A DNA stretch of 64,000 nt from an uncultured Duganella sp. (GCA_966112955.1 CBHWEO010000001.1:35548-99547); one strand, 5' to 3'. Numbered from the stretch's first letter, positions 1 through 7,447 are shown. Notes: generated by a model from the letters alone, not told the origin. Program-made: numbers and translations.

Positions 1-621
1 CTGAAGTCGTGGGAAGCCGGCCTGAAAGCGCGCTTCTGGGACAAGCGCGCGAGCCTGAACCTGGCCGCCTTCAATTACGACTACACCAACCTGCAATTGT
101 CCGGCGTGGCCATCGTGGCGGGCGCGCCGCGCTTCGTCACGCAGAATGCCGGCGCGGCCAGCGTCAAGGGCCTGGAGCTCGACGGCCAGGTGCGCGCCGG
201 CGCCAACGACAGTTTCAGCTACGGCCTGACGCTGCTGGATGCGCATTACGTGAGCTACCGGCCGAACGGCGTCGTGTCGTGGGCCGGCGAACCGCTGGAC
301 CGCGCGCCGCGCACCGTCGCCAGCCTGGGTTGGGACCATGGCTTCCGCCTGCCGGGCGCCCTGCTGTTGGCCGGCATCAATGCGCGCCGCAGCGCGGCCT
401 ATAACATCAGCGTTTCCAGCCAGCTGCTGCAGTACCGCATCCCGGCGCGCACCGCCAGCGATTTCACGCTGTCCTACCGTCCCGACGCCGCCAGCTGGAG
501 CCTGATGGCGCGTGTGAAGAACCTGGAGAACAAGGTACAGCCGATCACGATCGACAGTTTCGGCATGTCGGTGCCGAGCGATCCACGGACTGTCGATATC
601 CGTTTCGACTACCACTTCTGA
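1..621 (+). CDS. TonB-dependent receptor, C-terminal beta-barrel part (5' truncated by window edge)
   Basis: Frame 1 is open from base 1 (LKSWEAGLKARFWDKRASLNLAAFNYDYTNLQ...). It has alternating barrel strands and ends PRTVDIRFDYHF with a terminal Phe. Confidence 0.9.
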   Translation: MKSWEAGLKARFWDKRASLNLAAFNYDYTNLQLSGVAIVAGAPRFVTQNAGAASVKGLELDGQVRAGANDSFSYGLTLLDAHYVSYRPNGVVSWAGEPLDRAPRTVASLGWDHGFRLPGALLLAGINARRSAAYNISVSSQLLQYRIPARTASDFTLSYRPDAASWSLMARVKNLENKVQPITIDSFGMSVPSDPRTVDIRFDYHF

Positions 622-632
622 AGAGGAGGCGT

Positions 633-1433
633 ATGAAGCCGTTGTTGAACCACCTGCCCCGCATCACCCTGGTCCTGCTGGCGGCGTTCCTGGCCGTCCT
701 TGCCGCCCGCAGCTGGAACGAAACGACGACCCTGCTCGTGGTCAGTTCGATCCTGATGTTCGCCTGTTGCCTGGCCAGCGCAACCCACCTGCTGGGGCCG
801 CGCCCCGCCATGCGTTTCATGCTGATCGGCGTGGTCCTGGGCTGGGTGGCGGAAGAACTGGGGGCGACCCGCGGCTGGTTCTTCGGTTCCTACGACTACA
901 CGGACGTGCTGGGCCCGCGCATCGGTGCCGTGCCCTTCATCATCCCGCTGATGTGGTTCGCGCTGTGCTACGTGGCCTACGTGATCGCCAACCTGATCGT
1001 GTGGCAGGCCCCCACCGATGGCGCGCCGCCCCTCAAGCAATCGCTGGTAATGTCCTTCCTGGCGGCGATGATCGTCACCGCCTACGACCTGGGCGCCGAC
1101 CCCTACATGGTCTTCACGCTCAAGGCCTGGATCATGACCAAGACCGACGGCGGGTGGTTCGGCGAAACGCTGCAGGGCTTCGTTGGCTGGATGACCGTTT
1201 CGTTTATCATCATCTACGGCTTCCGCGCAACGCTGCGCCGCAAGCCGCCGGTCGCCAGCAGCGCCGTGACGCCGGTGCATGCGCTGGTGCCGCTGTTCAT
1301 TTACGGCGGCAGCATGGCGTTCCAGGCGGTGGAAGGCAGCCCGATTGAAACCCGCGCCATCGCCCTGTTCGCGATGGGCATCCCGCTCCTGACGGCGCTG
1401 TGCGGCTGGACGCGCTGGAAGGAAGCCGCATGA
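633..1433 (+). CDS. Carotenoid-biosynthesis (CruF/DUF422-like) integral membrane protein
   Basis: Multi-TM 266 aa with family motifs EELG..TG.FFG.Y.Y, P..IPLMW, AYDL..DP and P..GFVGW-like. RBS GAGGAGG lies upstream. Confidence 0.75.
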   Translation: MKPLLNHLPRITLVLLAAFLAVLAARSWNETTTLLVVSSILMFACCLASATHLLGPRPAMRFMLIGVVLGWVAEELGATRGWFFGSYDYTDVLGPRIGAVPFIIPLMWFALCYVAYVIANLIVWQAPTDGAPPLKQSLVMSFLAAMIVTAYDLGADPYMVFTLKAWIMTKTDGGWFGETLQGFVGWMTVSFIIIYGFRATLRRKPPVASSAVTPVHALVPLFIYGGSMAFQAVEGSPIETRAIALFAMGIPLLTALCGWTRWKEAA

Positions 1434-5800: not shown

Positions 5801-6267
5801 TGGCCGGCGGCGGCTGGGCGGATGTGGAGCGCCTGGCGCACAACCTCAAGTCCAGCGCCACCTATCTCGGCGCGGCCAGCCTGGCCCAGCTCTCCGACAT
5901 CGTCGAAGCCGGCGTGCGCGATGGGCGCCCCGAGCGTGCGCTGAAGGAAGCGGAAGCCATGCGCCAATCGCTGGAAATCATCCTGGCCGGCTTCGCCAAC
6001 GCCTTGCAGCCGCCTACCGGAACGGCCGACAGCCAGCCGGCCGACTTTGGCCGCCTGCTGCGCGAGCTCGACGCCTACCTGCGCGCCGACGACGCCCGTT
6101 CGGAAGACCTGCTGACCGAACTGGCCGCCCTGCTGGCCGGTTCGCCGCATGCCGCCGCGCTGGCGCGCATCCAGCGCGCCGTGGACGAAATCGAATATCA
6201 TGATGCGCTGAAACCGCTCGCCGATCTCGCCCGGGCCTTGGACGTCGACATGGAAGCCAGCCTATGA
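2794..6267 (+). CDS. Hybrid sensor histidine kinase: 7TMR-DISM extracellular + 7TM, HisKA, HATPase, two REC, Hpt
   Basis: H-box FLANMSHEIRTPMNAIIG, N-box NLTNNAVKFT, DTGIGM, GGTGLGL, REC LMDYMMP and LMDVQMH, Hpt AHNLKSSA. True start is 2794 (MLKHPLR, signal-like); the upstream part of ORF 1531 is shadow. Confidence 0.93.
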   Translation: MLKHPLRAWLATLVSALLLLLAAGMAPAHAAGGASLVLDEASGTHDAWPAVSILKDPGGALTAAQALAAADRFRKPESAYATLGVNKGIVVWVRIPVTVPAEGNGEWTIHIDYSQINRVDVFAATDGALHSHTVTGNLQPVVAPAGGGRTPAASLRLKPGMDHVVLLRVENIGSTILPIHFSKASVYHASALAEQMLQGMLMGLSLCLLLYSLAQWVNLREPLFGKYALLIAGTTLFSVEFFGLGSQYLWRDNVWMTLHAGGLFALMASCGGYLFVEQALARPGVDHVFSRLMKTGAALAALFALAYCFDLFSVEVLVIVVSTLGLMPMLLGLPGAFMRARRGDTVGVYFLVGWAVSFLSSVVVSQVISGKMAANFWTMHALQFGNAFDMVVFMRILGLRTKAMQNAMLRAEAATRLKSDFLANMSHEIRTPMNAIIGMSRLALMADPSPRQRNYLSKILGAGEHLLGIINDILDFSKIEAGKLALEKVPFSLDEMLDHLSTLTAVKTDAKKVELVFRVERGVPPKLVGDPLRLGQVLINLTNNAVKFTDSGEIVVAVKALEQAGGQAVLEFSVSDTGIGMDEDQLSRLFQSFSQADSSITRKYGGTGLGLSISRQLVELMGGTIKVTSTPGVGSRFSFTVKLGVGDASAEPVVSPAAALQQARVLVVDDSATAREALVEMLASFGVAANAANSGEQSLNMLVRAVEAGTPYQVVLMDYMMPGWDGVETIHRIHADPRFAAPPSILMVSACTRETVLQQEGELPLQGFLTKPVGPALLYHSLLQVLRPELAQAAPGGREQRGVPAQEMARLRGARVLLVEDNANNREVAMDFLDSAGVLVDVAVHGGVAVQMVQQGDYDLVLMDVQMHEVDGLTATRQIRAIEALRTLPILAMTAHAMPEDEARSLEAGMNGHITKPIDPDVLFRAMLQWIDPARLVGRAMPAAPAAQPVTSAAAAVAYPPLAGVDWQYALARADHNPAILAKRMRSFCNEYGSGPAELAAALAGGGWADVERLAHNLKSSATYLGAASLAQLSDIVEAGVRDGRPERALKEAEAMRQSLEIILAGFANALQPPTGTADSQPADFGRLLRELDAYLRADDARSEDLLTELAALLAGSPHAAALARIQRAVDEIEYHDALKPLADLARALDVDMEASL

Positions 6268-7169
6268 ACCAGGAAACGCAGAAAGTCCTGATCGCGGATG
6301 ACGACGGCATCAACCGCCAGGTCCTCGCGACCCTGCTGAAGCCGGAATACGTGGTGCTGCTGGCGAAATCCGGCGAGCAGACCATCGAGCGCGCCCAGCG
6401 CCATTTGCCGGACCTGGTCATGCTCGACGTGATGCTGCCGGACATGGACGGCTACGAAGTGCTGCGCCGCCTGCGCGCCGATCCCGCCACCGCCCACATC
6501 GAGGTGATCTTCATTACCGGCATGGGCCGCCCCGAGGACGAAGCCAAAGGCCTCATGCTGGGCGCGGCCGACTACATCACCAAACCCTTCAACTCCACGG
6601 TCGTGATGGCGCGCGTGGCCACCCACCTGCAAATGGTGCGCCAGCGCCGCATGCTGGAACACCTGGCGCACATGGACGGCCTGACCGAGCTGGCCAACCG
6701 CCGCCGCTTCGACGAGATCTACGCCAATGAATGGCAGCGCGCCGCGCGCCACACCCATCCCCTGTCGGTGGCGCTGCTGGACATCGACTGCTTCAAGCAG
6801 TACAACGACCACTATGGCCACCCGGCCGGCGACCGGGCCTTGCGTGCCGTGGCCCGTGCGGCCCGCAACGCCATGCGCCGCCCCTGCGACGTGGCGGCCC
6901 GCTACGGCGGCGAGGAGATCGTGATGCTGATGCCGGAGACGGACGCGGCGCAAGGCTTGTACGTCGCTGAAAGCATCCGCGAGGCGGTTGCGCAACTGCT
7001 GATCCCGCATGAAAAATCATACGCTTCGCCGGTGCTGACCGTCAGCATAGGCGGCGCCACCCTGCCGCTGGACGTGCAAGAATCGGCACCGGCGCTGTTC
7101 GATGCCGCCGACGCCGCGCTGTACCGCGCCAAGCAGGCCGGCCGCAACCGGGTGAACTGGAGGATGTGA
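6264..7169 (+). CDS. Response-regulator diguanylate cyclase (REC-GGDEF)
   Basis: REC LVMLDVMLPDMDG, DGLTELANRR, I-site RPCD and active-site RYGGEEI. Confidence 0.93.
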   Translation: MNQETQKVLIADDDGINRQVLATLLKPEYVVLLAKSGEQTIERAQRHLPDLVMLDVMLPDMDGYEVLRRLRADPATAHIEVIFITGMGRPEDEAKGLMLGAADYITKPFNSTVVMARVATHLQMVRQRRMLEHLAHMDGLTELANRRRFDEIYANEWQRAARHTHPLSVALLDIDCFKQYNDHYGHPAGDRALRAVARAARNAMRRPCDVAARYGGEEIVMLMPETDAAQGLYVAESIREAVAQLLIPHEKSYASPVLTVSIGGATLPLDVQESAPALFDAADAALYRAKQAGRNRVNWRM

Positions 7170-7447
7170 TGGACAAACGCTTGCTGATCGAGGGCCTGGT
7201 GCAAGGCGTCGGCTACCGCTACGCCTTCGCGGAACGGGCGACCGCGCTGGGCCTGGCCGGCTGGGTCCGCAACCGCCTGAGCGGTGCGGTGGAAGCCAGC
7301 GTGCATGGGCCCGCCGATGCGATCGGCGAGATGATCGCCTGGGCCCAGCGGGGCCCGAGTGCCGCCCACGTCAGCAGCGTGCAGGTGTCCGCCGACCAGG
7401 AGCCCGCGCCGCAGGACGGCGGGTTCGAAATCCGCCCCACGGCGTGA
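7169..7447 (+). CDS. acyP: Acylphosphatase
   Basis: GLVQGVGYR and GWVRN signatures; TGATG overlap with the upstream gene. Confidence 0.9.
   Translation: MDKRLLIEGLVQGVGYRYAFAERATALGLAGWVRNRLSGAVEASVHGPADAIGEMIAWAQRGPSAAHVSSVQVSADQEPAPQDGGFEIRPTA

Follow-up and report, generated by a model that had tools for sequence, protein, structure and literature searches.

The subject of this study is a 64,000-nucleotide stretch of DNA from an uncultured Duganella sp. (GCA_966112955.1 CBHWEO010000001.1:35548-99547), hereafter the window, near the start of which a gene for a non-secreted homologue of the Lcp/MpaB (DUF2236) haem oxygenases lies immediately upstream of a gene for a 7TMR-DISM receptor predicted to control the synthesis of cyclic di-GMP (c-di-GMP). 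Our main finding is that this pairing, with the enzyme gene directly upstream of the receptor gene and usually accompanied by a gene for a CruF-like membrane protein, recurs in about 90 Burkholderiales species belonging to at least five GTDB families; recurrence in dozens of species with differing flanking genes argues that the arrangement is not a chance juxtaposition. Judged from the gene content of the loci, the element that is always retained is the sensor, a 7TMR-DISMED2 domain and 7TM bundle with predicted c-di-GMP output, and the MpaB-like protein is an add-on. Every component belongs to a known family, and what we did not find in the literature is their conserved association, in which a haem protein of the Lcp/MpaB type that is not secreted, whether or not accompanied by a CruF-like protein, goes together with a 7TMR-DISM c-di-GMP pathway: no paper joining DUF2236/MpaB with 7TMR-DISM or DISMED2 was found in the searchable literature, and the statement of an earlier, sequence-only reading of this DNA that no system with such an architecture has been described stood up to literature searches. 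The 7TMR-DISM class includes RetS, LadS, and NicD, which govern switches in biofilm formation and virulence, but few natural ligands of such receptors are known; to our knowledge, no role has been assigned to the bacterial cytoplasmic members of the MpaB/Lcp family. The pairing gives a clue to the stimulus of a receptor class that is still poorly understood, and it offers a route both to a ligand class for 7TMR-DISM receptors and to the physiological role of an Lcp homologue that is not secreted.

Orthologues were surveyed by aligning 12 homologues of the MpaB-like protein (open reading frame 3 [ORF3]) and scanning one genome per GTDB species, which gave 356 relatives; the locus counts reported here refer to the best 80 of these, taken with 10-kb flanks and searched by tblastn with the window proteins. 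At all 80 loci, an orthologue of the sensor part of the window's receptor (amino acids 37 to 405; 36 to 90% identity, with E values down to 1e-174) was encoded directly downstream of the MpaB-like gene in the same orientation, although only the beginning of the sensor was visible at two loci cut by contig ends. Sixty-one loci, or 62 with a contig-cut Massilia locus (L047) whose output domain is lost, were of a kinase type, encoding a hybrid kinase and a separate REC-GGDEF protein; they came from the Oxalobacteraceae genera Duganella, Pseudoduganella, Massilia, Rugamonas, and Telluria, and all had a gene for a TonB-dependent receptor (TBDT) directly upstream unless the contig was cut. The 18 loci of a second, cyclase type, from Undibacterium, Acidovorax, Rhodoferax, Albidiferax, Rivibacter, and an Alcaligenaceae metagenome-assembled genome, had neither TBDT nor kinase, the sensor being fused directly to GGDEF, and all 10 of the cyclase-type proteins checked by Pfam had the order DISMED2-7TM-GGDEF. 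On this domain evidence the output of the module appears always to be c-di-GMP, made either through a kinase and a REC-GGDEF protein or by a cyclase directly. The conservation of the enzyme beside the kinase and diguanylate cyclase in relatives, on which the sequence-only reading depended, was thus stronger than expected and held even where the kinase and REC-GGDEF protein were replaced by a one-protein 7TMR-DISM-GGDEF. In Pseudoduganella chitinolytica the five-gene set stood in wholly different flanks. Several Massilia loci carried two tandem hybrid kinases, and some had two REC-GGDEF genes; at two Acidovorax loci (L074 and L079, positions 11,590 to 17,050) and at L084, two or three tandem 7TMR-DISM-GGDEF paralogues followed a single MpaB-like gene.

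In an order-wide sample, 10 of 400 Burkholderiales genomes, spread over several GTDB families, had an orthologue at 50% identity or more; of 400 other Pseudomonadota genomes sampled, 3 had the orthologue, a frequency indicating that the module is essentially confined to Burkholderiales. The genomic context was examined in 11 genomes (10 regions fetched and an 11th read from its coordinates, one of the set being from the phylum sample), and in 10 of them the sensor adjoined the MpaB-like gene; in the exception, G654, the MpaB-like gene lay beside cyanophycin synthetase genes and an orthologous sensor was encoded on another contig. More distant PF09995 proteins (25 to 39% identity) had no sensor neighbor. 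A tree of the sensors split cleanly into kinase-type and cyclase-type branches, and the distances among MpaB-like proteins correlated with those among sensors (Mantel r = 0.74; 0 of 999 permutations), a correlation that fits stable co-inheritance but that any two linked genes would show. Outside the order, a Stigmatella sp. (Myxococcota) carried a pair of CruF-like and MpaB-like genes (L001, 9204 to 11428; 70% and 60% identity, respectively, to the Oxalobacteraceae proteins) overlapping by 4 bp, with no receptor or TBDT alongside, and this pair probably reflects horizontal transfer of the enzymes alone.

The linkage is asymmetric. When the same sensor segment was used as the query in a reciprocal search, its orthogroup (E values of 1e-80 or lower; 38 to 84% identity) was clearly set apart from other 7TMR-DISM proteins (E values of 1e-29 or higher; at most 28% identity), and in genomes other than that of the window it comprised 16 sensor genes, of which 10 shared a locus with an MpaB-like gene and 6 did not. 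Set against the 10 of 11 genomes in which the enzyme gene adjoined the sensor, this indicates that the enzyme is nearly always found with the receptor, whereas the receptor can stand alone. The most informative case was G277, the sole same-genus genome in the sample, in which genes for a PEP-mutase-family protein, TBDT, kinase, REC-GGDEF protein, acylphosphatase, and Lnt-like protein occur in the same order as around the start of the window (65 to 87% identity over the block, and 80 to 83% for TBDT, kinase, and REC-GGDEF protein) and in which the module contains neither a CruF-like nor an MpaB-like gene. The kinase reading frame of G277 is intact, encodes 1179 amino acids, and starts 9 nucleotides past the TBDT stop codon; its N terminus, M-T-S-L-L-N-Q-V, resembles the M-K-P-L-L-N-H-L of the CruF-like protein and follows the same ribosome-binding region. 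The gap (L100 [G277, C1:972001-992000], at about 10,900 to 11,110) therefore looks like an in-frame deletion that joined the first CruF-like codons to the kinase start, which would mean that the signaling half has been maintained without the enzymes. This deletion, together with the 6 of 16 receptors lacking an enzyme, makes the enzymes accessory to the receptor; with a species of the same genus keeping the TBDT, kinase, diguanylate cyclase, and acylphosphatase in the absence of both, they are dispensable for the signaling part. G277 provides a natural knockout for comparison.

The MpaB/Lcp-like protein itself (ORF3; nucleotides 1430 to 2800, plus strand; 456 amino acids) scored 49.4 bits against Pfam family MPAB_Lcp_cat (PF09995; gathering threshold, 23) and was matched by phmmer to LcpK30 (5O1L/5O1M; E value, 1e-12), with KVRLIHATIRHL opposite KTRMVHAAVRHL. 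The equivalents of Lcp His198, Arg164, Thr168, and Lys167 are His174 (codon at 1949 to 1951), Arg139, Thr143, and Ser142; in 37 orthologues spanning both module types, H174, R139, R141, T143, K169, R171, and R178 were invariant, and Asp121, conserved in at least 90%, lay opposite Lcp Glu148 but within a weakly aligned stretch. In Lcp, His198 is the 100% conserved proximal haem ligand, Lys167 a dispensable distal ligand (59% conserved), and Glu148 the catalytic base in the substrate tunnel (PMC5522427). An AlphaFold2 model of ORF3 (pLDDT, 83; pTM, 0.85) was matched by Foldseek to LcpK30 (5O1L_B; E value, 3e-10; probability, 1.0; TM score, 0.70) and to t-anethole oxygenase (8S1J; probability, 1.0). 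With a conserved proximal His motif and a predicted fold like those of these two enzymes, ORF3 looks catalytically competent and would be expected to bind haem and to cleave C=C bonds in an O2-dependent manner. Its likeness to Lcp extends to the family, which also takes in fungal MpaB/MpaB', the globin-derived fold, the proximal motif K-x-R-x-x-H-A-x-x-R-H-L, and the Arg164 and Thr168 equivalents; it differs in having only about 18 to 19% identity across the Foldseek structural alignment, Ser at the distal Lys167 position, additional conserved N- and C-terminal segments, and a gene beside that of a receptor rather than beside lcp-type catabolic or regulator genes. Lcp is secreted, whereas ORF3 is predicted to be cytoplasmic or membrane tethered: its N terminus, MNAAIPAAAAPTLRADPLADD, contains neither a twin-arginine motif nor a hydrophobic signal segment, and no Tat or Sec signal is evident. 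ORF3 does not fit the description of a Tat-secreted rubber oxygenase acting on extracellular polyisoprene, Lcp sensu stricto, the protein being signal-less and, in eight species, fused behind a membrane protein with a C terminus predicted to be cytoplasmic. Of the papers retrieved as possible literature links, that on Rv3839-Rv3840 was irrelevant, its "LCP" being LytR-CpsA-Psr, as was one on P422 cytochromes.

Upstream of ORF3 lies the gene for a CruF-like membrane protein (ORF2; 633 to 1433, plus strand; 266 amino acids) that scored 106.9 bits against Caroten_synth (PF04240; threshold, 25) and that has, as read from the sequence, about eight hydrophobic or transmembrane segments with both termini predicted to be cytoplasmic. 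It resembles CruF in its clear membership of PF04240, its multipass nature, and its similar size, but it falls well below the NCBIfam equivalog cutoffs for CruF (NF045693, 77 versus 400; TIGR03460, 70.7 versus 154.7; NF041333, 43 versus 300) and, unlike CruF, is fused to a haem oxygenase homologue in some species. At the 80 loci, the CruF-like gene stood separately and immediately upstream of the MpaB-like gene in 49, was fused to it in frame in 8, had moved downstream in 6, and was not found within 10 kb in 17. In the fusions, the CruF-like part is N terminal, with a linker of about 20 residues from its last helix to the Y-x-ADPLAD motif of the MpaB-like part; the modeled fusion protein of L083 (m8e395be63358; pLDDT, 84) matched Lcp over its C-terminal half in Foldseek. 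Eight transmembrane segments with inside ends joined to a signal-less MpaB-like part would put the oxygenase on the cytoplasmic side of the membrane, and the fusion argues for one substrate common to both enzymes; the eight fusion species bear out the earlier view that the two enzymes belong together. Known members of the families to which the two enzymes belong are reported to hydrate or cleave C=C bonds in lipophilic molecules with chains (for example, PMC6013536 and PMC6900556 and, for Lcp, PMC5522427). The sequence-only reading had gone further and held that all such enzymes act on isoprenoid double bonds. This is too narrow: the fold shared with t-anethole oxygenase makes alkene cleavage the common chemistry, wider than isoprenoid cleavage, and a further report implicates an MpaB-family enzyme in the degradation of nitrile-butadiene rubber (PMC12724181), so that alkene C=C chemistry is the safer wording. 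No carotenoid genes were found at the locus of ORF2. The N-terminal half of the L083 fusion gave a weak Foldseek match to a mycobacterial Insig homologue, the lipid-binding membrane protein MvINS (4XU4; probability, 0.94; TM score, 0.44), which may reflect merely a shared helical bundle.

The receptor gene (ORF4; 2794 to 6267, plus strand) encodes a hybrid sensor kinase of 1157 amino acids, the sole 7TMR-DISM protein detectable in the genome. An N-terminal signal or transmembrane segment is followed by a periplasmic 7TMR-DISMED2 domain (2941 to 3336), a 7TM bundle (3373 to 3987), HisKA (4045 to 4239), HATPase (4378 to 4722), two REC domains (about 4786 to 5148 and 5239 to 5571), and Hpt (5782 to 5976); every domain exceeded its Pfam cutoff, and the expected phosphorylation sites can be read in the sequence, namely, a His in the H box, an Asp in each REC domain, and a His in Hpt. 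No solved structure related in sequence to the DISMED2 domain was found. With the hybrid kinases RetS and LadS and the GGDEF proteins NicD and RgsP, ORF4 and its orthologues share an N-terminal DISMED2 domain, a 7TM bundle, and an output that is either a hybrid kinase or GGDEF; members of the orthogroup are 36 to 90% identical to one another, whereas other Burkholderiales 7TMR-DISM proteins are at most 28% identical to them. Unlike RetS and LadS, ORF4 would feed a dedicated REC-GGDEF protein rather than Gac/Rsm, and for none of the four receptors did we find a report of an adjacent oxygenase. The REC-GGDEF response regulator, a putative diguanylate cyclase (ORF5; 6264 to 7169, plus strand; 301 amino acids), carries GGEEI at 6906 to 6920 with an RPCD I site five residues upstream, and the REC Asp is present. 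Seventy orthologues had GGEE[L/I/M/F] and RxxD, with GG-E-E in all and GGEEL in 61; the one-component cyclase-type proteins mostly had GGDEF. ORF5 is akin to the phosphorelay-activated cyclases PleD, WspR, and DgcR (PleD and DgcR were its top NCBIfam models) in its REC-GGDEF organization, phospho-acceptor Asp, and RxxD I site, and differs from that type in its single REC domain, in its GGEE[L/I] rather than GGEEF motif, and in having as its upstream kinase a 7TM receptor with two REC domains and Hpt.

The TBDT gene is truncated by the window, which holds only its 3' part (1 to 621, plus strand; 206 amino acids; TonB_dep_Rec_b-barrel, PF00593). The gene starts at C1:33931, 1,616 nucleotides before the first base of the window, and the full protein of 745 amino acids contains a signal peptide and a plug but no N-terminal signaling extension. 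Among the genomes tested, orthologues (59 to 83% identity) occurred solely in the three of kinase type, of which one is enzyme-less, and always inside the module; they were absent from the cyclase-type genomes and module-less relatives. The TBDT tracks the kinase rather than the enzymes. A motif, CTATT(T/G)CC-N16-cTGnTAGACT, resembling a -35 box and an extended -10 element was found 48 to 200 nucleotides 5' of the TBDT start at 60 of 62 loci, compared with an expectation of 0.008 per region, and in no cyclase-type locus; its copy here (L099:2270-2312, or about -1730 to -1690 relative to the window) is approximately 70 to 115 nucleotides upstream of the TBDT start. Searches for a substrate class returned only generic siderophore, haem, and B12 receptor models, all far below cutoff, and inspection of the leader by eye revealed nothing resembling a Fur box; these results speak neither for nor against a role in iron or haem uptake. 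The leader of about 100 nucleotides had no Rfam match at an E value of 1 or lower in a search for riboswitches and known RNAs. In close relatives this leader contains conserved TTGCAAG-type repeats.

As the likeliest and most economical explanation, we suggest that these genes constitute a c-di-GMP module built on a 7TMR-DISMED2/7TM receptor that senses an unsaturated lipid-like ligand and to which an alkene-modifying enzyme pair has become attached, a reading in which our confidence falls a little short of even. In Oxalobacteraceae, the TBDT, as the product of the first gene behind the conserved promoter-like motif, would bring an unsaturated lipid-like compound, perhaps an isoprenoid or another alkene from the environment, into the periplasm, where the DISMED2 domain or the 7TM bundle would detect it; a relay from His to Asp (REC), on to His (Hpt), and finally to the Asp of the REC-GGDEF protein would then lead to the production of c-di-GMP. 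Elsewhere in the Burkholderiales, this receptor module is fused straight to GGDEF. On the cytoplasmic side of the inner membrane, the CruF-like protein, of hydratase type, and the MpaB/Lcp-like protein would hydrate and oxidatively cleave C=C bonds, and by removing or converting the ligand they could end the signal, detoxify the compound, or channel it into catabolism. The kind of ligand and the direction in which it would shift c-di-GMP are inferences; that the TBDT imports a terpenoid and, indeed, that any ligand affects c-di-GMP is conjecture, pure and simple. Only tentatively do we extend this scheme to a lipid or alkene signaling device, of a kind so far undescribed in bacteria, in which the oxygenase/hydratase pair produces, transforms, or breaks down the isoprenoid-type or other unsaturated lipid that the 7TM receptor recognizes, with c-di-GMP as the readout; such a device, if real, would resemble eukaryotic apocarotenoid or oxylipin signaling and would be the first case in which genomic data predict a ligand class for a 7TMR-DISM receptor.

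Several observations weigh against the model favored here. The DISMED2 domains studied so far have been linked to carbohydrates, calcium, or small polar compounds, not to lipids; we know of no TBDT that imports hydrophobic terpenoids, and the TBDT of this module appears, from its model matches, to belong to no characterized subfamily. An enzyme at the cytoplasmic face and a sensor in the periplasm could share a ligand only if it crosses or resides in the membrane. The CruF-like gene is missing from 17 of the 80 loci, and most REC-GGDEF orthologues have L or I instead of F in the last position of the GGDEF motif.

An unlikely alternative is that the enzymes make the signal: O2-dependent cleavage of an endogenous membrane isoprenoid, such as squalene, a hopanoid precursor, or the ubiquinone or undecaprenyl chain, would yield an aldehyde or ketone that is the ligand of the 7TM receptor, and the module would report the lipid or oxygen status of the membrane or be autoinducer-like. 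The strict linkage of enzyme to receptor and the predicted tethering of the enzyme on the cytoplasmic side of the membrane are in keeping with this, as is the carbonyl-ended nature of the fragments generated by Lcp-type cleavage (PMC5522427). The window's genome also has squalene genes: its only SQS_PSY-family genes are an hpnC/hpnD pair beside hpnE (squalene route; contig C78:11690-14749), crtI and crtY not having been searched for. Pairs of hpnC and hpnD were, however, present in every one of the 25 Burkholderiales genomes tested, whether or not the module was there, so that a correlation with squalene or hopanoids does not discriminate, and endogenous production of the signal leaves the TBDT without a role. 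A receptor whose sole ligand is the product of an enzyme should not persist alone; the intact TBDT-kinase-diguanylate cyclase operon of G277 after the loss of both enzymes, and the 6 of 16 receptors that are enzyme-less, thus weaken this alternative.

It is more doubtful still that the MpaB/Lcp-like protein is a stand-alone haem sensor of gas or redox state that docks on the 7TMR-DISM receptor and modulates it, in the manner of H-NOX, NosP, and the globin-coupled sensors. A haem-protein gene directly 5' of a kinase or GGDEF gene is the classic signature of H-NOX and NosP partners, and the order here, with a globin-related haem-protein gene directly 5' of the kinase or cyclase gene, matches it and is shared with H-NOX-HnoK, NosP-NahK, and globin-coupled sensors. 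Ser142 in place of the distal Lys167 of Lcp would leave the sixth coordination site open, the MpaB-like protein and the receptor co-diversify, and LcpK30 has a 3/3 globin fold resembling that of globin-coupled sensors (PMC5522427). The haem protein of the module belongs, however, to an enzyme family and in some species is joined to a homologue of a membrane hydratase, a fusion that gas sensing leaves unexplained, as it does the dedicated TBDT; the nearly invariant D121 opposite the catalytic Glu148, albeit in a weakly aligned stretch, would also point to an enzyme. Partner kinases of H-NOX and NosP normally have no sensor of their own, whereas the receptor here already possesses a large extracytoplasmic domain and a 7TM bundle, and receptors of this orthogroup persist without the haem protein. 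Finally, that the genes have only a transcript or an ecology in common, the receptor sensing an unrelated polysaccharide or cation and the enzymes being merely co-expressed, would accord with the nonlipid nature of known DISMED2 ligands and with the coming and going of module parts (CruF-like protein, TBDT, acylphosphatase, and both enzymes) but is improbable: adjacency has survived in five or more GTDB families and despite the switch in output architecture, the junctions are overlapping or nearly so, and the flanking genes vary by lineage, a pattern for which co-expression alone hardly accounts.

The module offers a number of natural experiments bearing on an alkene-modifying pair attached to a c-di-GMP receptor, namely, the enzyme fusions, the two output architectures, the deletion of the enzymes in a sister species, and the dedicated outer membrane importer. 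If the enzymes cleave alkenes and have a defined small substrate, they could also serve as biocatalysts.

The window is part of contig C1 of a 5.76-Mb draft genome with best matches to Pseudoduganella, Duganella, and Massilia. An ORF scan found the six same-strand genes and their junctions (+11, -4, -7, -4, and -1) exactly as the sequence-only reading had described them, and Pfam agreed with its domain assignments for all six; the last junction becomes -4 if an alternative GTG at 7166 is the start of the acylphosphatase gene. The proposed operon at 1 to 7447 was correct in gene set and order but not in its start, which lies outside the window with the beginning of the TBDT gene. Indirect hints of co-transcription are the overlapping junctions, the single promoter-like motif before the TBDT gene, and the number of terminator-like sites, at or below expectation (6 in a 12-kb scan compared with 7.2 expected from shuffled sequence). 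The CruF-like, MpaB-like, acylphosphatase, and 7TMR-DISM genes are single copy, no paralogues of them having been found in the genome. The six genes do not form one fixed unit as had been supposed: the TBDT is confined to kinase-type loci, the CruF-like gene is not universal, and acylphosphatase (ORF6; 7169 to 7447, plus strand; 92 amino acids with an ATG start; 76 bits against PF00708, with the VQGVGYR and GWVRN motifs and their catalytic Arg and Asn) was found only in the Duganella/Pseudoduganella clade, at 14 of the 80 loci (L005 to L013 and L015 to L019), and additionally in L003 (the same record as L018) and L100; it is a recent addition confined to one clade.

Upstream, the TBDT gene is preceded by an intergenic region of about 205 bp, a small divergent gene, and a PEP-mutase-family gene. 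The divergent gene (L099:1783-2178, minus strand) encodes a protein of about 130 amino acids with a signal-peptide-like N terminus that also occurs in Pseudoduganella violaceinigra (L003, 6347 to 6748). Downstream, a convergent Lnt-like gene (window 7460 to 9937, minus strand) ends 12 bp past the acylphosphatase stop codon; its product of 825 amino acids comprises LNT_N and CN_hydrolase domains and a long C-terminal extension, and its synteny with the module is seen only in the close clade.

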